From: Clostridia bacterium
GTDB taxonomy: Bacteria > Bacillota > Clostridia > TANB77 > CAG-508
NCBI GenBank assembly: GCA_017458285.1
Contig: JAFTFU010000002.1
Span: 92,171-156,170, forward strand
DNA: 64,000 bases
Direction of reading: 5' to 3'
Below are positions 28,522-55,747 of this stretch, piece after piece. A program made the translations under genes and the position numbers. Under the pieces are notes generated by a model. That model had not been told where the DNA came from. It did no database searches and saw nothing but the letters and a program-made list of their open reading frames with translations. Each line of letters starts with the position of its first letter. The stretch's first letter is position 1.

Positions 28522-31500
28522 TTATATGTGATATTTTTTTAGAGAACTTCCTCCGAAAAGCCTGTCAGTAGTCATGGATTTGATTAAAGATTCAAACTTC
28601 TTATCGTGCTGCATGGCATAAATAAATTCATCATAGTTCTTTACGTTTGGCAAATTGAAATTAACATTATCCAAACTGACAGAGATACTATTCGTATTAT
28701 TACTAATATTTGGTGCAACATCAGAACTATTATTATCAAATAAATTATCTTTGATAAATGCACTGGGGTCATTCATCATACTAAATAAATTGGAAGTTGC
28801 ATTGCCATTTAAAATCATATCTCCTTTGGCGAGAGGGGTAAGGATAGCACCGTCAGAAGGTCTAATGATTGCTTCGGGAATACTATTCTCTTGTGTCCAC
28901 GCCATTTGAGATTTGTTGACTGATTGCGTACCTTGCTTAAATTTTGGAACACCGCTCAAACCACTCAAAAAACTTTTAGCATTACGTGTAATATCACCAA
29001 CACCGCTCAAACCACTCAAAAAACTTTTAATATTACTTGTATTAGAACTATTGTTTTTTGTAGCAGACTTAGAATTTGTGTTCTTTACATTTGTATCATT
29101 ATTAGCTTTTTTATCAAGAGCGGACACCATCGTATTAACACTGTTTGTCAAAGAATTGATAGCACTAATAACATTTGTAGTGGCATTAGTAAAATTAATC
29201 CCATATTCAGATAATACAGGTTGTGCGCCACCTTTCCAAATATTATTCATAGTAGAAGAAATTTTATAACCAACATCACTTGCTTGTTCAATCAGTGTAT
29301 CTTTGATAACATTAGCATCTTCATTAATATTTACAATCATATCAGAGATTAAACTATCAACATCGTCTAATCTTTCGTTCAATACCTTTTCATATTCATT
29401 ATACAAATCATCAAGCAATTTCTTTTGGTCGCTAACAAATTTATCGTATTGCGTTTCTTCCAGATTTTCTTTTGCTTCTTCCAAAGATACTTTAATTTGT
29501 TGTACTTTTGACTTTGTTTCTTCGGATGTATCGCCTGTATAAGCGGCTAATTGTTTCTGTAATGAGGTTATTTCCTTGGTTTGATCTTTAATCTTTTTTT
29601 GATAATCGTATAAATCTTTCTGACTATCTAACGCCTCATTATACTTATCAATTAGATCCTGTAAGGCATTTAACTCTAATTCAATGCCTTCTTTGACCAT
29701 ATCTACAATAGCCTGTTTTTCATCCTCGGCAGATAAAATCATCTGCTGTTGTAATTTCAGCAGCTCTTCTCTGCGTTCTGCAAGGTCTTGATTATAAGGG
29801 TCTTTCGCCAACTGTTTGTCAATTTTAATGATTTCTTTAGCGTACTTATCAGCTTGTGCCATATAAGTATTATAATTAACTCCATGCAACCCCATAGTAG
29901 CCTTGCCATTATTTGTAAGTTGTCCAGCACCTTGACCTTCTTCTTTGTAAAGCTTGTCATTTTGCATAAGTTTAATCAAAAAATCAGACTCTTGCGTTAT
30001 TTGAGATATCTTCTCTTGAATTAAATCAAAAATTTGCCACTTAATATCTCTTATAGAGTTATTAAATTCAATAAGAGATGTCGTTGATTGTTGAATGGCA
30101 ATATCAGTCTTTTCGATTTCATCCGTTAATTCATACCATGCTTGCGAACCAACTTTTATATCACCCGATGCAATCGCTGTTTGTAATTTAATGGATAATT
30201 CATTTTTCTTAGAAACAAGTTCGGCGTTATTTTTCTTTTCATTTTTTATCTGTGCTTCGTAATATTTCGTACTAACAAGATAGCCCTTTGCCTGAGTTTG
30301 TGCAATACTCTCATTTAATTTAGTTGCTTGATTTGTAATCTGGTTAAGCTTGTTATCGTGTTTAGTAGCGATATCATTAAATTCTTCAACGGCTAATTCA
30401 TGAATTGTTTTCTTGTATTCCTCGGCGTTTTCTTTTGCCTTTTTAATATTCTCTGTCCATTCGTACCAAGCTTTACTGTATTTTTGAATATCACCATTTT
30501 TTACCGCTTCGCCAAGTTTTTTCTGTAACTCACTTGCTTCGTTTAAAGCATAAACACTTTGTTGTTTATATGCCGACCTTAAACCACTGTAATTTTTAGT
30601 GGTTTTGCGTGTAGTATCACTGGCTTTAGTTTCAATCATACTGATTTTACTGCCATATGTTCCACTACGATTTTCCCAACGTGTTTGTATATCGCCAAGT
30701 TCTTCAACTGCTAATTGATGTCTTGCGTTTGCGGCTTGTCTCGCATTTGATTGAGCGTTCTTGATATCAGTTTTGTATTTATAATAATCATCATCGCCAA
30801 CTTTGATTCTGCCATGTTTGATATCATCTTGAAGTTGACCATACAGATTCGCTGCCTTGTCCGTTTCGTATTTTTCAGTTTTCTTATAATTTTTGCCAAG
30901 CTTTTTATAATTCTTGTTTATAGACCGTGTGTCCTTATCGAGATTATTATAATAATCACTATCGGCATTGATATAATTAATTCTGTTTTCATAATATGTT
31001 TCAATATTATCTAATCGTTGTCTTATATATTCTTTTTCAGTCTCTTTTAAATCTGAAACCGCATCCCTACAACTAATAGCTTTATCATACAATTCCTGAT
31101 AATTTTCTATCTTTTCTTTCAAATCAGCATTTTTTATTTCAGAAAGATTTATGCCACCTTCCCGTACAGCCTTTTTCCAATAACTACCAAGACCTACCTT
31201 ATTAGCTTCGTTCATATAATAACCATAAGCATTTTTATTAAAGGAAATTTCTTTTTCAATAGCGTTGATTGATTTTGAAATCTGTTTATTTTTCCCTTTA
31301 AAAGTGATATAATCTCCGACTTTTGAAAACACTTGTTTGGTATTATTAGCGAATTTCTTTAATCTACGTTCAATCCAATCGAAAACTTTTCCAGTCTCAG
31401 TTGTTGACGTATCTAACCCCGAATCACTTGAATCACCTGAGCTTTTTGTATTGCCAGTCAATTTATTCCATGTGTTAGTCGTGATTTTGTAAGGTTTGAT

Positions 31501-34281
31501 GAGTTCATCTAAGACTTTTTCTAATGCTGCATTGCCAGATCGAGTAAATTGTCCATGATCTCTATAATTAGCATAATCAGCATAAGTTAAGCCATAAGAT
31601 GATAATAAAGCATTTATTTTTTCTTGTGCTTCTGGCGAAGCATATCTTTTTAATTTACCAGTGTTTTTATCTAAAAATGCGCCACTTTTACTGTCATTAT
31701 CAATTATATTGTTAATCTTAGAATATACTTGCGATTCTTCAAAATGTTTTTGTATTTCGGCTTTAGCTTTAATCGCATTAGAAAAATTAGTAATGTCATC
31801 ATTATATAATTGTCCGAAATCTTTAATGAGTTTGCCTTGTTTAGATAATAATTCTGCATTAGTATTTTGTAATGCTGCCTTTTTAATTTCAGATAAATTA
31901 TCCCAATTAGTAATATCAATTCCATAAAAGTCATTAAAATACTTTATCTCATCTTGAATTTGTTTTATAGAATCGCCTAATAAGTTTTCATTATCTTTTT
32001 CTTTCTCTTGAACTGCTTTATGATACGCCTCATAGTCATTTTCATACATTTCAGCGTTGTACAAATCTTCATAAGCATCTTTTTGTTTAGCAACTAATTC
32101 AGTAATAGCAGTTTGCATACCTTCCATATCATTGATATATGGACGTAAAGATTGATAAGTGTCATCTGTCATTATAGTGTCGATACTGGAAAGCGATAAA
32201 GAACCATTTTCGCTGATTTCTTTTGTAAAACCAATAAGAGTTGATATACTACTTGATACACCTTTAATAGCCTTTTGAATGTCCTCAATTAAAGTCTTAG
32301 TGTCTTTAAGTTCAGGCTTTAACTGCTTTAATGCGGCAATCATACTTTGAATAGATTTTTTCGCTTCATCAGATAAATCCTGTGTATTTAGTACTTTTTC
32401 TAATTGACCTATTAATTCTTGTGGACGTTCTTTTATTACCTTATCTATTCCTTCTGCTAAATTGCCAAACTTTTCATCTGTCCAGTCAACATATTCGCCA
32501 AGAGTAGGGAAGAGGTCAACTAATTCAACAACATCATTTGTTGTTAATTTTCCAGCAAAAAGGTTTTGATATGCTTTGTTGAGTTTATCAACATCGGAAT
32601 GAACAGATTTTAATTCTTTTGTTTGGTCTTTGGATAATGCAAAAGATGATTCATCGTTTTTTTCTGCGACCTTTGTTTTAACAATTCCAAGTTTTTCTAA
32701 TGCACCAATATATTGTTCAACTGTAATTTCAGCTTGACCAGTAGCATCAGTCATACCGTTCCATAAATCTATATAACCTTTAATATTATCATATAAATTT
32801 TTCTCATCACCCGACAAAGATTCGTAATTCAAATCCCCTTTTGATAATATTGAATTAATATCATCAGATGTATAATTATTCTTATTAACAATTTCTTTTA
32901 TTTTATTACTATAACCATCGGGCGAACCTTCCAATTCTGCTTGAACATCAACAATAATAGGTGTTTCTTTTGATTGTTGGTACACTTGTTTTTGTACATC
33001 AGCAAACCAATTTTTTATACTTTCACCAGAAACATTATCCTCATCAACAAAATCAAGATTAAATATATCATGAAAAATGTCACGTAATTCAGTGTATGCT
33101 TGCGTGATTTCATCTTGATTGCCTGAAGCAAGTGCCTCTGTATAAGCCTTTTTCTTTTCAACTATTTTTTCGTAATATTCAGAATACTTATCATCAGTCA
33201 ATATCAGATTTTCTACAGCCGTATCATAAATCGTTTTATTAGTTTTATATTCATCACTACTTAATAATTCACTTTTTCTTTCTAATATTTCTGATTTTAA
33301 TTCCTTAAATCCTTGTAATTCTTGTTGTTCATACCAATTTAAACTATCTTTAGACTCATATTCCTTTATTTTAGTTTCTACGGCATTATGAAATTCATCC
33401 ATAGTAGCCAAAATTTCATCAATAGTACCACTAAATCCAACTTGTGTGCCGCTACTATTAGGCATAATATAAATATTTTTACCATTTTCATCAGCCCATT
33501 GGTTTATCCATTTTTTACTACTAACTTGTTGTCCGCTTCCCCAATTAACACCCAAGAAACTATTTCCGTTAAAATATTGATTAGCGTTTTTAGTTTCTGT
33601 AACATGAGTATCGTTCCAGTTTTTTGCCGCTTCTTTTTTTAATTGGATTAAAGCACTGGTTTCACCTTGTATAGATTCAGTTATATAACCTACAGCATCC
33701 TTTTCCTGACCATATTTCTTTATCAGTTCTTCTTGAATTTCGAGTAATTGTTTTCTTTTTTCTGTAGCTTCTGTTTGAGAAATACTATCATAATTTAAAG
33801 CTGTTTTTAAATCATTAATTTTACTAATATAACTATCAATATCATCAAAAGATTTTTTTAAATCATTTGCGCTATCAGCAACATCTTCAATGCTATTAGA
33901 CCAATTAGAAAATACCGTAACAGCAGTCGAAACAACACCAATTACTGTTGCTGCTGCAACCGCTATCGCACCAATAGGATTGCTTGCCATCGCTACTGTC
34001 AAACCTCTAAAAGCAGCACTTAAACCACCTGTTGCCGTTGTCAACGCTCCTGTGGATGCAGTTGCTGCCATTTCGGCTTGTGAAGCTGCTAAAGTAGCAG
34101 CAATTTGTTTTGCCTCTGCCTCAACAACACCATGATTCATAAGAATTTGTTGCATCTGTTCTTTATTTAATCCTGTCTTAACAAGGCAAGCCTTTAAATC
34201 TTCTACAGACATATTTTTAGTTACGGTATTAACTAATTCTAAACTTGTCGCACCCTCAATTCCCAGAATTTTTAATTGCAA
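28522..34281 (-). CDS. Tape measure protein, C-terminal portion (no recognisable RBS; only a TTG start)
   Basis: Gly/Ala-rich hydrophobic segment (ATGGLSAAFRGLTVAMASNPIGAIAVAAATVIG), more than 1500 aa of coiled coil, a duplicated KSFLSGLSGV motif and a terminal IPEAIIRPSDGAILTP block. Confidence 0.75.
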   Translation of the reverse strand: MQLKILGIEGATSLELVNTVTKNMSVEDLKACLVKTGLNKEQMQQILMNHGVVEAEAKQIAATLAASQAEMAATASTGALTTATGGLSAAFRGLTVAMASNPIGAIAVAAATVIGVVSTAVTVFSNWSNSIEDVADSANDLKKSFDDIDSYISKINDLKTALNYDSISQTEATEKRKQLLEIQEELIKKYGQEKDAVGYITESIQGETSALIQLKKEAAKNWNDTHVTETKNANQYFNGNSFLGVNWGSGQQVSSKKWINQWADENGKNIYIMPNSSGTQVGFSGTIDEILATMDEFHNAVETKIKEYESKDSLNWYEQQELQGFKELKSEILERKSELLSSDEYKTNKTIYDTAVENLILTDDKYSEYYEKIVEKKKAYTEALASGNQDEITQAYTELRDIFHDIFNLDFVDEDNVSGESIKNWFADVQKQVYQQSKETPIIVDVQAELEGSPDGYSNKIKEIVNKNNYTSDDINSILSKGDLNYESLSGDEKNLYDNIKGYIDLWNGMTDATGQAEITVEQYIGALEKLGIVKTKVAEKNDESSFALSKDQTKELKSVHSDVDKLNKAYQNLFAGKLTTNDVVELVDLFPTLGEYVDWTDEKFGNLAEGIDKVIKERPQELIGQLEKVLNTQDLSDEAKKSIQSMIAALKQLKPELKDTKTLIEDIQKAIKGVSSSISTLIGFTKEISENGSLSLSSIDTIMTDDTYQSLRPYINDMEGMQTAITELVAKQKDAYEDLYNAEMYENDYEAYHKAVQEKEKDNENLLGDSIKQIQDEIKYFNDFYGIDITNWDNLSEIKKAALQNTNAELLSKQGKLIKDFGQLYNDDITNFSNAIKAKAEIQKHFEESQVYSKINNIIDNDSKSGAFLDKNTGKLKRYASPEAQEKINALLSSYGLTYADYANYRDHGQFTRSGNAALEKVLDELIKPYKITTNTWNKLTGNTKSSGDSSDSGLDTSTTETGKVFDWIERRLKKFANNTKQVFSKVGDYITFKGKNKQISKSINAIEKEISFNKNAYGYYMNEANKVGLGSYWKKAVREGGINLSEIKNADLKEKIENYQELYDKAISCRDAVSDLKETEKEYIRQRLDNIETYYENRINYINADSDYYNNLDKDTRSINKNYKKLGKNYKKTEKYETDKAANLYGQLQDDIKHGRIKVGDDDYYKYKTDIKNAQSNARQAANARHQLAVEELGDIQTRWENRSGTYGSKISMIETKASDTTRKTTKNYSGLRSAYKQQSVYALNEASELQKKLGEAVKNGDIQKYSKAWYEWTENIKKAKENAEEYKKTIHELAVEEFNDIATKHDNKLNQITNQATKLNESIAQTQAKGYLVSTKYYEAQIKNEKKNNAELVSKKNELSIKLQTAIASGDIKVGSQAWYELTDEIEKTDIAIQQSTTSLIEFNNSIRDIKWQIFDLIQEKISQITQESDFLIKLMQNDKLYKEEGQGAGQLTNNGKATMGLHGVNYNTYMAQADKYAKEIIKIDKQLAKDPYNQDLAERREELLKLQQQMILSAEDEKQAIVDMVKEGIELELNALQDLIDKYNEALDSQKDLYDYQKKIKDQTKEITSLQKQLAAYTGDTSEETKSKVQQIKVSLEEAKENLEETQYDKFVSDQKKLLDDLYNEYEKVLNERLDDVDSLISDMIVNINEDANVIKDTLIEQASDVGYKISSTMNNIWKGGAQPVLSEYGINFTNATTNVISAINSLTNSVNTMVSALDKKANNDTNVKNTNSKSATKNNSSNTSNIKSFLSGLSGVGDITRNAKSFLSGLSGVPKFKQGTQSVNKSQMAWTQENSIPEAIIRPSDGAILTPLAKGDMILNGNATSNLFSMMNDPSAFIKDNLFDNNSSDVAPNISNNTNSISVSLDNVNFNLPNVKNYDEFIYAMQHDKKFESLIKSMTTDRLFGGSSLKKYHI

Positions 34282-34305
34282 TATAATTAAAGGCTATAAA
34301 GTTAC

Positions 34306-34334
34306 TTGACATTATTCAAATAAAACGATATAAT
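34306..34334 (+). promoter_or_regulatory. Perfect consensus promoter, antisense to the late operon
   Basis: TTGACA (34306-34311), a 17-nt spacer, then TATAAT (34329-34334). Confidence 0.7.
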
Positions 34335-34359
34335 ATTATCAAAAAGGTAGGTGTTGTAT

Positions 34360-34680
34360 ATGAGTGATAATATTCGTACTATCGGAATAATAGATTATGA
34401 TTGTCCGTTTTGTCATCATAACAAATCTTATGTTAAAATGTATTTAGAATATACAGAATTTGGTGAATGTATGTCTTGTGGGAAAGAGACTTATCAAAAG
34501 GTTTTAAAAACATTTGACTTTAATAAACCAAAATCTGTTCAATGTCCTTATTGTCATTCAACAAATACTAAAAAAATATCCACAACTTCAAAAGTTGGTA
34601 GTGTTGCCCTCTTTGGTATTTTTGCCGCCGGCAAAGTTGCTAAAGAATGGCATTGTAATACTTGTAAAAGTGATTTTTAA
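34360..34680 (+). CDS. Double zinc-ribbon small protein with a hydrophobic segment (moron-like, antisense to tail genes)
   Basis: CPFC...CMSC and CPYC...CNTC pairs with a VGSVALFGIFAAGKVA segment between the second pair. It has its own promoter, SD (aaggtagg) and terminator. Confidence 0.65.
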   Translation: MSDNIRTIGIIDYDCPFCHHNKSYVKMYLEYTEFGECMSCGKETYQKVLKTFDFNKPKSVQCPYCHSTNTKKISTTSKVGSVALFGIFAAGKVAKEWHCNTCKSDF

Positions 34681-34684
34681 TTTT

Positions 34685-34710
34685 AACCGTCATAGAAATA
34701 TGGCGGTTTT
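34685..34710 (+). terminator. Rho-independent terminator of the antisense gene
   Basis: aaccgtcat / atggcggtt 9-bp stem (one G-T wobble) running into TTTT. Confidence 0.55.
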
Positions 34711-35146
34711 GCATATTTGGAACATACATTAACAGCACATAAAATGTGGCTTTTATGTACTGCAAGGAATGGTGTCCTCTGAACATTCCCATTATTCAAA
34801 CTTTTATCCCGACATCGCTTGCACGATTGCTACTATCGGATTATATAGTTTTATCTTTCGACTAATGGGTGTGCTGCCAGTTACCAATTATATATCTGTC
34901 CGGCATCATTTTTTAGCCGTAGAAATCTCACTCCTGCTATTCAACAGTTTGACTTTTTTGCCTTATTTTTCGGCTACCCTCAAAATAGGGAAGAGGGTGT
35001 AGTGAGCATTATGGTTTCAGGCAATTTTTCCTTTGTTTGTTTGAAAACTCCCTTCTTATAGAGTTATCCTTATCGCCATTATGATAATTCTTCCCCTATA
35101 ATAGACCAATAACATCTTCTGGGTGATGTTGTAAACTCTCAACGAG
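34711..35146 (-). ncRNA. Structured non-coding segment inside the split tape-measure gene (candidate intron core)
   Basis: Visibly richer in G/C than the flanks. On the minus strand there are several stems: AUCGU-GCAA-GCGAU (34814-34827) nested in CCGA/UCGG, UAGCCG/CGGCUA (34914-34919/34971-34976), ACCCUC/GAGGGU, GGAAUG/CAUUCC and AACAUC/GAUGUU (35111-35130). Confidence 0.3.
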
Positions 35147-38100
35147 TCAATCCAAGTTTTTGATAAACGCAGTAATACCTACTGCTGCGATTGTAGTGCC
35201 TAATGCACCAAAGGCGTGTGTTATGCCATCTACAATATCAACTATTCCTGATGATCCATCAACTAAGAATTTTATTAAATCAGATGATAAGACTGTATTA
35301 GATAATGCTTGCCAAGAAGCGTTAAGTGCATCTAATTTGCCTTCCATACTTTGCATATACTTTTCGTTTTCTGCTGCTGCCGTTCCCTCGGCGTTAGATG
35401 CCGCATTAACTGCTTTTTCAACATTTGACCAGTTGTTTATAAGAGCTGCAACACTGTTAGCTCTCTGTTTTCCTGCAACAGTTTCAAGCAAGTCTGCACG
35501 CGATGTATCAGTAAGTTCATTCCAAATAGTACTAATCTCTTTAAATATCTGATATGTACTTTTAAAATCGCCATTATCTTTAAAAATATTTACTTTTCCA
35601 TTTGTAAGATTAAGTATATGAGTTTGCATTTTTGAAATTGACTCTACATTCTCATCTACTTCTTCGCCAATTTCTTCAAGCTGCCCCTTCATTCCTCTCA
35701 AACGCAAACTAACGACATTCAGTGTAGTACCTGCTTGTTCGGCGTTTTGCGTTACTTCTACTATACCTGTATTCATTCCTGCGGCTTCTTCAAATGTATT
35801 TCCAGCCATTTGGAGTGACGATGCTGACCTTTGCAGACTTTCACCAACATTAGCAGCGGTAACGGCAAATTCATTGCCCAATTTGTCGTACACGTCAGCT
35901 ATTTTCATTACTGCTTCAGTAGAATCACCATTAGATACTTGTAATAATTCGTCTTGATAACCCTTATAAGCTGTTACTAAATCCTTTACAGCAGTGTCGT
36001 TATCCAAATCTGTAACGTGCTGATACATAGCAGTTATTTCAGCTAATTTATTTGCCGTATTTGCTTCAAATCCAAGGCGTACCCAACTGGCAGTAGATTC
36101 AATAATGTCATTTAATGCAACACCATATTTCTTTGCACCAGCAACCATATTATCATACAACTGACTATATTGTTTATCCGTTAAATCAGTAACACGATAT
36201 AATTCAGTCATAGCAGTGTCAACTTTAAGTACATTGTCAAACATTGACTTTACGCCATTAATAGCATAAGAAATCATCATTGAAGCTGAAAAATAGGTAG
36301 CCAATGAGCCTAATTTACTTTTCAATTTATCGCCTAATGTCATTGTGGCTTTTCCTGCTGACATTATCTGGCTTTCGAGTTCTTTAACTTCTCTTTTCAG
36401 ATTAGTTAATTTTATATCATCTGCTGATTCTATTTCATTTTTTATCTGTTGTAATCTTGCACCAAATTGAGGTATAGCAGCAGAATATTTTTTAAACATC
36501 AAATCAATTTGCGTTGTTAATGCTGTTTTCTTGTTAGCAAGATTAGCTTCATCTTTTAATTTTTGCTGTTCTATTCGTAATGTCTTTATTTCATTTTGTA
36601 ATGTAACTAATGTTTTACCGAATTGTGTATAATCACCTGTAACTTTTTCAATATCGTCACCACTGGCTTTCATACTGCCTAACAAACTTCTTAATTCTTG
36701 CGTTTTAAGGTTTATTTCATCTTCTGTTTTACCTAATCGTCTATAATTATTTTCGATAGTAGCAATTTGATTTTCTAAAGTGCCATTCTCGATATTGCCT
36801 TTAATAGAATTAAGACCACTCTTTTTAACATCGTTGATTTTAGCTTGAACAGTTGCCATTTTATCAATAGTGGTTTGTAATGCACTATTAATTTCTGCTG
36901 TTTGCTCTGTGCTAAATTTTGAATCAAACGATTGTCGTGTTGCTTGATATGTAGCTTGCAATCTTTCTAATTGTGCCTCTAATTCTAAAATTTGGTTACT
37001 ATCTTTTGTTCCGTCTAATTTCAATAAATTAGTTTGAATATTTCTAATTTGTTGTATAGTAGATAATAATTCTTTATATGCGGTAGTTACTTTATCGGTT
37101 TCAGCTTTTTCCGCTTGTTTTCCAATTTGCTGCTCTGCTTGCAATGCTTTAAATTCTGCTTTAGCGACAACAAGCATATTCAAATATTCCGTTAGAGACT
37201 GCCTATCAGTAACCCCACCAAGTTTTACACTTAAATCACTTATACTATATGATTTTAGCTGCTCCAGTGCTATACCGATTGATTTTATTTTAGCTTCAAA
37301 TTCTCGTAATAATTGTATTTGTTCGCCTTTTATTGTTTCAATAGGTTTTGCTCTTAGCTGATTAGCCATTGATTCAACTTCACGATATATTTTAACTTGC
37401 GACCGTATTTCAGCAATAGCCGCTTTAACACTTGCTTCTGAAGATGCAAAACTTTCTTTTGTAGCTGTACCTAATGTGTTTACTTTTGCAATAGCTTCAT
37501 CATATAAAGAATTTAAGTGTTCTATATTTTTTGAATTTTGAATTGGTTTACTCGCATTAACATCAAGATATTCGTCTTTAAGAATTTTTAACTTTGAAGT
37601 ATAATTAGTAACAGCAGCAGTATTTCTCTCGGTTTGTTTTCTATCGGTTTCAAGTTGACGAGCATAATTATCACTACCAGTAGAACCAGAATATTGATAG
37701 CTTTGCCCGATTACTTTTCCTTTGCTATTTTCTATATTCGCTAAATTATATTTTAAAGATTCGATCTCTTGGTTGACATTTTTTACTTCTACTGTGAAGC
37801 CAGTAATTTCGCTTTTCGCATTTCTAAAAGGCTTAGTAGTTACTTCGCCAAATTTTCCAAAATAATTTCTCGTTACTTCAAAAAGTTTTTGTTCGTCCTG
37901 AATTATACCATTAATTTCTTCTTCAAATTCTTTTCGCACAGAAGAATTAATTAATTTAATTTCTACAGGCTTAATTTTTTGTACTGTTTGATTTGTGTTT
38001 TTTACAATATTATCGACTTGTTTTGTTATGTTCGATGAATTTATATTGCTGTTTACAACTACATTTATCTTACAATTATTTAAATTATCTAATTGATTTC

Positions 38101-38254
38101 TTATATTTTTAATTCTTGTTTCAATCTGAGAATCATCGATTTTTAATACAATAGGATTTTCACTTAATTTATTTATATCCTTTTGTATCTTTTCAAACTC
38201 GCCATTTTTTAATTGCAAACCTAATGCAATAGAAAAATCTTCCATAACCATCAC
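35147..38254 (-). CDS. Tape measure protein, N-terminal portion with TP901-type core
   Basis: Long coiled coil, then MTELYRVTDLTDKQYSQLYDNMVAGAKKYGVALNDIIESTASWVRLGF, a tape-measure core region. A strong SD (aaaggagag) precedes the start cluster. Confidence 0.8.
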   Translation of the reverse strand: MMVMEDFSIALGLQLKNGEFEKIQKDINKLSENPIVLKIDDSQIETRIKNIRNQLDNLNNCKINVVVNSNINSSNITKQVDNIVKNTNQTVQKIKPVEIKLINSSVRKEFEEEINGIIQDEQKLFEVTRNYFGKFGEVTTKPFRNAKSEITGFTVEVKNVNQEIESLKYNLANIENSKGKVIGQSYQYSGSTGSDNYARQLETDRKQTERNTAAVTNYTSKLKILKDEYLDVNASKPIQNSKNIEHLNSLYDEAIAKVNTLGTATKESFASSEASVKAAIAEIRSQVKIYREVESMANQLRAKPIETIKGEQIQLLREFEAKIKSIGIALEQLKSYSISDLSVKLGGVTDRQSLTEYLNMLVVAKAEFKALQAEQQIGKQAEKAETDKVTTAYKELLSTIQQIRNIQTNLLKLDGTKDSNQILELEAQLERLQATYQATRQSFDSKFSTEQTAEINSALQTTIDKMATVQAKINDVKKSGLNSIKGNIENGTLENQIATIENNYRRLGKTEDEINLKTQELRSLLGSMKASGDDIEKVTGDYTQFGKTLVTLQNEIKTLRIEQQKLKDEANLANKKTALTTQIDLMFKKYSAAIPQFGARLQQIKNEIESADDIKLTNLKREVKELESQIMSAGKATMTLGDKLKSKLGSLATYFSASMMISYAINGVKSMFDNVLKVDTAMTELYRVTDLTDKQYSQLYDNMVAGAKKYGVALNDIIESTASWVRLGFEANTANKLAEITAMYQHVTDLDNDTAVKDLVTAYKGYQDELLQVSNGDSTEAVMKIADVYDKLGNEFAVTAANVGESLQRSASSLQMAGNTFEEAAGMNTGIVEVTQNAEQAGTTLNVVSLRLRGMKGQLEEIGEEVDENVESISKMQTHILNLTNGKVNIFKDNGDFKSTYQIFKEISTIWNELTDTSRADLLETVAGKQRANSVAALINNWSNVEKAVNAASNAEGTAAAENEKYMQSMEGKLDALNASWQALSNTVLSSDLIKFLVDGSSGIVDIVDGITHAFGALGTTIAAVGITAFIKNLD

Positions 38255-55671: not shown

Positions 55672-55747
55672 TGGGTGCAGAGGCAAGACTTGAACTTGCA
55701 ATCTTCAGGATATGAACCTGCCGAGCTACCATTGCTACTACTCTGCA
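55672..55747 (-). tRNA. tRNA with CAU anticodon (Met or lysidine-modified Ile2), CCA encoded
   Basis: 76 nt. Acceptor TGCAGAG/CTCTGCA, discriminator C plus CCA. Anticodon stem GCAGG/CCTGA with loop TTCATAT. T-arm GCAAG-TTCAAGT-CTTGC. The D-arm (TAGC-AATGGTA-GCTC) is slightly irregular. Confidence 0.65.

Follow-up and report, generated by a model that had tools for sequence, protein, structure and literature searches.

Results

Organization of an interrupted tape-measure locus

We analysed a 64,000-nucleotide stretch of DNA (hereafter the window, with positions counted from its first letter) in which the gene for a tape-measure protein (TMP) is annotated as two open reading frames on the minus strand. 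The upstream frame, 35147..38254, encodes 1,035 residues ending in ...GITAFIKNLD before its stop codon; the downstream frame, 28522..34281, is listed as a 1,919-residue protein with a TTG start (MQLKILGIEG...). Between them lie a small gene on the plus strand, a hairpin followed by a T-run (34685-34716), and a non-coding stretch of 0.44 kb. The TMP sequence matches proteins of large siphophages of Clostridia, Brevibacillus and Enterococcus, and in relatives the product of the upstream frame contains a PF10145 domain. Public sequencing runs in which the window is present were made from gut or rumen samples of cattle and sheep, and megablast and blastn searches of 50,697 GenBank phage records found no DNA similarity to the region. 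At Rfam gathering thresholds only two RNAs are detected in the window, both 20 kb from the interruption: a skipping-rope RNA (RF02924; 55498-55576, minus strand; 57.7 bits against a cut-off of 36.7) and, about 100 nt from it, a tRNA gene (55675-55747, minus strand; 47.3 bits).

An earlier note, made from the letters of the window alone, had described positions 34711-35146, on the 5' side of the TMP interruption, as non-coding, hairpin-dense and enriched in G/C, with minus-strand stems typical of a self-splicing intron or another large ribozyme. The segment is indeed structured on the minus strand, where 34681-35160 folds with a minimum free energy of -117.8 kcal/mol, below that of shuffled sequences (z = -3.16). 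The one frame within it, a 77-codon ORF at 34769..35002 that the note had discounted, is not credible as a gene: the frame is not conserved, and homologues differ by indels of 1-2 nt and by larger insertions, of about 20 and 80 nt. The G+C fraction of the stretch, 0.36-0.40, exceeds that of the adjacent small gene (0.27-0.31) and of most of the downstream TMP frame (about 0.31), but the enrichment is only modest because the neighbouring upstream frame is equally G+C-rich.

Homologues in rumen and gut phages

Homologues of the segment were recovered by exact-pattern scans of IMG/VR, JGI/ENA metagenomes and GTDB genomes with conserved core motifs, and a profile search yielded 20 copies that are complete or nearly so, plus one fragment. 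Among them are 15 distinct full-length sequences, which share 75-80% identity with the window and derive from phages of the rumen and gut and from one Ruminococcus genome (Ruminococcus sp. YE282, contig NZ_FMUV01000001.1, locus L055). All are inserted at the same codon of giant TMP genes, after ...AF(I/V)KN(F/L)(D/G), all carry the small antisense gene, and downstream of every copy the TMP frame resumes with (Q/H/R)(L/I)(K/R)(L/I)LG. More distant TMPs, at loci L002-L004, are uninterrupted across the insertion site; those of L003 and L004 exceed 2,300 residues with neither gene end reached.

Several relatives carry other insertions in the TMP gene, upstream of the shared site: L005 (974-2790), L042 (5554-6702), L051 (3518-4471), L041 (7250-8188) and L002 (851-2068 and 2533-3798). 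Each holds a sense-strand ORF of 313-422 residues, that of L005 encoding zinc fingers and an endonuclease-like tail. These insertions are probably further introns; an Rfam scan of those in L005 and L002 reported none. At L052 (2206-3415), an ORF for an IS30-like transposase adjoins a truncated copy of which P7-P8-P7', the antisense gene and the downstream TMP exon are left, an arrangement that reflects either insertion of an IS element into the ribozyme or a chimeric contig.

Conserved fold of the non-coding segment

A group I structure was drawn manually over the alignment of all 15 sequences (A3), and its pairs were counted independently. In the resulting P1-P8 fold with a P3/P7 pseudoknot, 97.8% of 1,718 cells are paired. 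Comparative alignment, which the earlier note had proposed as a check, reveals compensatory changes on both sides at 48 of 115 pairs, compared with 5-8 in controls whose 3' partners were displaced by 1-3 columns, and none of 500 shuffles reached the observed pairing values. RNAalifold on eight of the sequences already gave 26 compensated pairs. Helices 7-20, which correspond to P3-P8 in canonical order, have 80-100% of their cells paired, or 98.7-100% when minor peripheral hairpins are excluded. G.U pairs account for 208 of the 1,718 cells (12%) and would become A.C mismatches on the plus strand; the fold therefore belongs to the minus-strand RNA.

From its 5' end, the minus-strand RNA first forms two hairpins within the P1 loop, P1a (35132-35149) and P1b (35112-35129, with the conserved loop ACCCAGAA); these are helices 3 and 4 of the alignment and contain 4 and 5 covarying pairs. 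P2 (35094-35101 with 35056-35063) and its inner hairpin P2a (35083-35087 with 35070-35074) follow as helices 5 and 6. P3 joins AAGGAA (35028-35033) to UUCCUU (34764-34769), and its 5' strand is followed by an A-rich J3/4 (AAAU, 35024-35027). P4 (35018-35023 with 34875-34880) and P5 (35012-35015 with 34883-34886) both covary and are separated by a J4/5 of AA/AA. The P5 extension, inside 34875..35023, comprises P5a, a variable P5b, a GCC/GGC hairpin, P5c and P5d (34895-34923). P6, which also covaries, and its extension occupy 34783..34874, with P6a capped by a GAAA loop, P6b, P6c, and P6d capped by a GCAA loop. J6/7 (UCA) and the 5' strand of P7, G[A]GGAC with a bulged A, lie at 34774..34782; the P7 partner is GUUCC (34719-34723). 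P8 is a 13-bp hairpin (34732..34763) with 5 covarying pairs, and J8/7 is UAAUGUAU (34724-34731). GUUCAGAGGACAC and AAUGUAUGUUCC, from the P7 and joining region, resemble the classical R and S consensus elements.

P5b varies freely in length (A3 columns 170-250, about 34976-34994 in the window): hairpin-forming extras of about 80 nt occur in L011, L046 and L055, and extras of about 20 nt in L024 and L030.

Most stems named in the earlier note have a place in this fold. AUCGU-GCAA-GCGAU within a CCGA/UCGG helix is P6d within P6c, GUC-GAAA-GAU is the covarying P6a, ACCCUC/GAGGGU is the variable P5b hairpin, and the ACAUAAAA/UUUUAUGU stem is P8; P6d covaries and P6c never varies. Two of its pairings do not survive. 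The variable base of GGAAYG (C or U) changes in step with the 5' strand of P6, and CAUUCC is the 3' strand of P3, which dissolves the proposed GGAAUG/CAUUCC helix. The strands of the long-range UAGCCG/CGGCUA helix are used instead in the local helices GCC/GGC and CGGC/GCCG, the latter of which shows, in three sequences, a compensatory change from C-G to U-A.

The catalytic centre itself hardly changes. The strands of P7, J6/7, J8/7 and P3 are constant across sequences that are 75-80% identical elsewhere. P7, whose G-C pair beside a bulged base has the form expected of the guanosine-binding site, is invariant in 15 of 15 sequences and hence gives no covariation signal; more generally, covariation says nothing about P7, P6c and most of P3 because they never vary. 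The one departure in P3, a double change from G.U to U-A in L028, establishes the P3/P7 pseudoknot and excludes the different pairing proposed by RNAalifold.

The Rfam scan that the note had also proposed returned only the group I family RF00028, at 12.5 bits against a gathering cut-off of 50, a threshold that is a criterion of detection, not of biochemistry. P5, P6 and the P1 loop carry large insertions, which the model penalizes, and the RF00028 alignment places P4, J4/5, P5, P6 and J6/7 on the same bases as the hand-drawn fold. Gathering-threshold and E-value scans of the window, L001, L002, L005 and L059 found no significant family at the elements; they gave two weak RF00028 matches, one of them nonsensical. 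Judged by its predicted fold, the element appears to have the structure that defines a group I intron and to fall short only of the Rfam score. The note had left the intron class unnamed; the evidence supports group I.

Splice sites and exon pairing

The predicted intron, 871 nt on the minus strand (34279..35149), begins at U35149, the first base of the in-frame UGA stop, and ends with G34279. It separates TMP exon 1 (35150..38254; 1,035 codons, ending ...AAC UUG GAU) from exon 2 (28522..34278; 1,918 codons and a stop, starting CAA UUA AAA for Q-L-K-I-L-G), both on the minus strand. Its 5' end reads UGACUC and its 3' end ...UUG. The region singled out in the earlier note is thus the ribozyme core, but the intron extends further, from 35149 down to 34279 and through the antisense gene.

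Exon recognition appears to centre on an internal guide sequence, UUGGUC (35104..35109, minus strand), in which GUC (35104-35106) serves P1 and UUG (35107-35109) serves P10. P1 consists of 3 bp between exon 1 GAU (35150-35152) and GUC, including U35150.G35106 at the 5' splice site. This U.G pair is invariant in 15 of 15 sequences, and position -2 switches between A-U and G.U. The invariant U at -1 occupies a third codon position and its partner G lies within the invariant UUUGGUCU; the only in-frame 5' site that follows a U is the one after GAU or GGU. In each case the first intron codon is the UGA or UAA that ends the exon 1 ORF.

At the 3' end, the G before exon 2 is invariant in every full-length copy and the two bases preceding it vary, the triplet being AUG in most relatives, UUG in the window and L037, and AAG in L041. 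In L051 and L048 a stop codon stands immediately upstream of this triplet. Taking the terminal G as the final intron base puts the start of exon 2 at a codon boundary, on CAA, CAU or CGA. P10 pairs exon 2 CAA (34276-34278) with the guide UUG over 3 bp. In L028 the guide is UCGGUC, which predicts an exon 2 that starts with CGA, as is found; this A-U to G-C compensation is a single event.

A further helix of 7 bp joins exon bases AAAACUU (35154..35160) to GAGUUUU (35044-35050), 3' of P2. Across the family, A(G/A)AACUU in the exon pairs with AAGUU(C/U)U beyond P2, with compensatory changes in the window, L041 and L031. Together with P1, this helix means that the 5' exon is held by two intron segments that flank P2, which to our knowledge is unusual. 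A search across relatives for P9.0, or for a P9 closure that would draw the distant 3' splice site towards the core, turned up no consistent pairing.

We also considered a 5' site after AACUU, with either the proximal GAGUU as guide or the distal AAGUUCU helix as P1. This site was rejected because it leaves no terminal G, puts a U-A pair at the splice site in 14 of 15 sequences and is contradicted by the cDNA junction described below. The boundaries adopted here follow from the invariant U.G pair and terminal G, from the reading frame and compensation in P10, and also from a cDNA contig that departs from the genomic sequence exactly at 35150. In Ruminococcus sp. YE282, the expected spliced junction is ...AACUUCGGU joined to CAAUUAAAA.

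Joined exons in metatranscriptome contigs

RNA evidence was drawn from assembled contigs of metatranscriptomes, and the joined contig comes from a bovine metatranscriptome. In run X30 (RNA-Seq cDNA), the match of a 338-nt contig to exon 1, with 12 differences in 159 nt (about 92% identity), reaches exactly to 35150, and the contig then runs on for 179 nt. The 30 nt nearest the junction (CGAAUUAAACUUCUGGGAUUAAGUGGUUCA) read, on the mRNA strand, CGA AUU AAA CUU CUG GGA UUA AGU GGU UCA and encode R-I-K-L-L-G-L-S-G-S. This is the exon 2 start of a relative, in frame and without the terminal G. In the sister run X26, a 1,362-nt contig of the same variant has its first base exactly at 35150, as would be expected if the assembly graph branched at the splice site.

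The genomic locus of this spliced variant was found neither among the loci compared nor in IMG/VR, so an intron-less allele keeps a place as a source of the joined contig, albeit an unlikely one. A search of 5.8 billion proteins with the spliced junction peptide found no close allele without the intron; its nine match clusters are exon 1 fragments that end at the junction. A DNA search for an intron-less allele, with a pattern built on the rejected AACUU junction, gave chance matches only. Whichever its source, spliced RNA or intron-less allele, the X30 contig fixes the boundaries. The reading offered in the earlier note, of a self-splicing intron or large ribozyme that flanks the TMP interruption on its 5' side, is supported by group I architecture, covariation, splice-site rules and a joined cDNA.

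Contigs of other RNA runs span the unspliced junction. Within the intron, contigs from X27 and X33 (34693-34963) and from X34 (34818-35129) cover only the ribozyme core, and X26 contigs have the Illumina adapter joined directly at the P9 hairpin (about 34716) and inside the antisense gene (about 34524). The core-only contigs and adapter joins hint at a stable core RNA, either excised or processed.

An antisense zinc-ribbon gene in the 3' part of the intron

The 3' 0.4 kb of the intron are occupied by the gene on the plus strand (34360..34680), which encodes a 106-residue protein with four CxxC knuckles (109 residues from an alternative GTG start at 34351). Upstream lies a promoter (34306..34334, plus strand; TTGACA-17 nt-TATAAT) that matches the consensus at 12 of 12 positions and is followed by the Shine-Dalgarno sequence AAAGGTAGGTG. 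The 3' 100 nt of the intron, which contain this promoter, are not conserved in sequence. Promoter elements are present in all relatives, as a -35/-10 pair or as TGnTATAAT, along with a strong Shine-Dalgarno sequence. RNA contigs, which may derive from either strand, cover the gene.

The gene is followed by a hairpin (34685..34708) at the place expected for P9. It was read from the sequence and can form on both strands; on the plus strand, with the T-run, it has the form of an intrinsic terminator. A terminator scan did not list it. Of 12 full-length relatives, 11 have a hairpin of different sequence at the corresponding position, and the hairpin may double as P9 and terminator. Promoter, Shine-Dalgarno sequence and P9-position hairpin recur in relatives, and by these sequence features the gene resembles a moron that lies in reverse orientation within the 3' part of the intron.

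Among 30 cluster representatives of the protein, the C-terminal 45 residues (CPYCHSTNTKKISTTSKVGSVALFGIFAAGKVAKEWHCNNCKSDF) are nearly invariant and the N-terminal half is variable. Searches of Pfam, PHROGs, PADLOC and the PDB returned generic zinc ribbons only, with no nuclease or defence family, and no homing endonuclease domain (LAGLIDADG, GIY-YIG, HNH, His-Cys box, PD-(D/E)XK or EDxHD) was found in the protein. One member weakly matches an HNH PHROG (E = 0.006) over a single CxxC knuckle, and one member matches LITAF in Pfam (E = 0.05). A scan of IMG/VR with the single protein of the small ORF gave no match. The succession of CxxC, hydrophobic stretch and HCxxC recalls the LITAF-type zinc ribbons that insert into membranes; by this conjectural analogy, the protein could conceivably be directed to a membrane.

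The same zinc-ribbon family lies antisense in two other intervening sequences of TMP genes, at L001 (4742-5554) and L059 (1980-3322; GCA_965357865.1), the latter with two tandem zinc-ribbon copies and a 58-residue ORF. These intervening sequences show no similarity to the ribozyme of the window and no Rfam match.

Discussion

The segment 34279-35149 on the minus strand is, with little doubt in our view, a group I intron in the TMP gene of a large rumen siphophage or prophage, and 34711-35146 is its ribozyme core. Two apparent genes and an orphan spacer thereby become one TMP. The spliced gene (28522-38254, minus strand) would encode 1,035 + 1,918 = 2,953 residues, which is among the longest tape-measure proteins and implies a very long tail.

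The main alternative is that TMP-N and TMP-C are two independent genes, separated by a moron gene and a structured RNA that does not splice, such as a leader, a small RNA or a decayed remnant of an intron. Gene callers do give two ORFs, and exon 2 begins right after an AUG in most relatives, but a start codon is absent in some; independent translation of exon 2 is unlikely because it has no Shine-Dalgarno sequence of its own in the window and because L041 and L037 carry AAG or UUG in place of AUG, as the window itself carries UUG. A decayed or non-splicing RNA would fit the Rfam score, which is far under threshold, and the coverage of the unspliced junction by some RNA contigs. Against such an RNA stand the invariance of P7, J6/7, J8/7 and P3 at 75-80% identity elsewhere, the covariation of the exon-intron pairings and the cDNA contig that joins the exons at exactly the predicted bases. 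We consider two separate genes very improbable.

We give still less credence to a structure formed on the plus strand, whether as a 3' UTR or small RNA downstream of the zinc-ribbon gene or as an RNA antisense to TMP. The small gene does end just upstream, at 34680, and plus-strand folding of 34681-35160 also beats shuffles (z = -2.38), but the terminator-like hairpin and T-run at 34685-34716 precede the region, the 12% of G.U cells turn into A.C mismatches and the fold takes in the ends of the minus-strand exons. A group II intron or another undescribed splicing ribozyme, to which the covarying Watson-Crick pairing of exon bases 35154-35160 with a distant intron segment might point as an IBS1-EBS1-like contact between exon and exon-binding site, is just as implausible given a group I core topology with group I junctions, the lack of a GUGYG 5' end, of a domain V/VI near the 3' end, of an AY terminus and of a match to any Rfam group II model, and a cut that follows a U.G pair with loss of the terminal G from the joined RNA.

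For the group I intron, we propose the following course of splicing. The pre-mRNA would fold into P1-P8, placing exon 1 GAU on the guide GUC with U35150.G35106 at the cleavage site, and seven further exon bases would bind the intron segment 3' of P2. A free guanosine held in P7 would then attack after U35150. The terminal G34279, about 440 nt downstream of the core, would next take the place of the guanosine, and the 3-bp P10 between exon 2 CAA and guide UUG would help to position it; recruitment of so distant a 3' splice site is presumably aided in this way. Ligation of the exons as ...K-N-L-D joined to Q-L-K-I-L-G... would yield the single 2,953-residue TMP. On this scheme, catalysis would proceed without the help of a protein.

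A more speculative reading, which we regard as rather doubtful, treats the intron as the carrier of an autonomous antisense moron whose membrane-directed zinc-ribbon protein is expressed from the prophage. One hairpin would then serve as both P9 and moron terminator; the excised intron, abundant late in infection, would be an antisense RNA against the moron mRNA; and transcription of the moron would interfere with splicing of the TMP mRNA. If so, lysogenic and lytic expression would be coupled. On this reading, the recurrence of the protein family in non-homologous intervening sequences (L001, L059) would point to the gene, and not the ribozyme, as the conserved partner. The gene could also be a new kind of factor in intron mobility or phage competition.

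Beyond this locus, a family from rumen phages that the Rfam model misses and that has no relative among GenBank phages suggests that introns in uncultured phages are probably under-counted. Its antisense, promoter-equipped cargo, which encodes no nuclease, and its split binding of the exon are unusual for bacterial group I introns, and offer a system for asking how introns acquire and express passenger genes.

Group I introns are known from TMP genes of Bacillus cereus-group prophages (TMP-IVS1, -IVS2 and -IVS3; Tourasse and Kolsto 2008, PMC2504315), where some are without a complete homing endonuclease gene and are passively carried by the phage (PMC2504315). As in those introns, a prophage TMP gene is interrupted here and P1/P10 are adapted to the insertion site. 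The B. cereus introns belong to IA1/IA2 and are detected by standard methods, whereas the present family scores 12.5 bits on RF00028; it also differs in its antisense non-nuclease gene and in having no P7.1/P7.2 hairpins, typical of phage IA introns, between P3' and P8.

In the nrdD (sunY) intron of phage T4, the ribozyme core comes first, the ORF lies downstream and the 3' splice site is distant. The present intron likewise has a full core before the ORF region and a 3' splice site hundreds of bases downstream that would need the terminal G and P10. In T4 nrdD the ORF specifies a homing endonuclease and reads in the sense direction, whereas the ORF here runs antisense, comes with a sigma-70-type promoter and a putative terminator of its own and lacks nuclease motifs. 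Antisense genes do occur in nuclear rDNA group I introns, in the form of homing endonuclease genes, as in Dir.S956-2 of Didymium iridis (PMC3679873). There, as here, the protein gene is opposite to the ribozyme strand in a peripheral part of the intron, but the Dir.S956-2 type is a eukaryotic IC1/IE intron with an antisense homing endonuclease, and ours is a phage intron with a small zinc-ribbon protein.

The IStrons of Clostridioides difficile, finally, combine a group I ribozyme with an IS element fused at its 3' end. The present intron resembles them in having a group I core at the 5' side and foreign cargo at the 3' side, and in its removal, here predicted, from the mRNA of a Firmicute; unlike them it contains no transposase, its cargo being a single moron-like gene. 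Group I introns in prophage TMP genes are thus already known; what is new is a family invisible to Rfam that carries an unusual antisense cargo.
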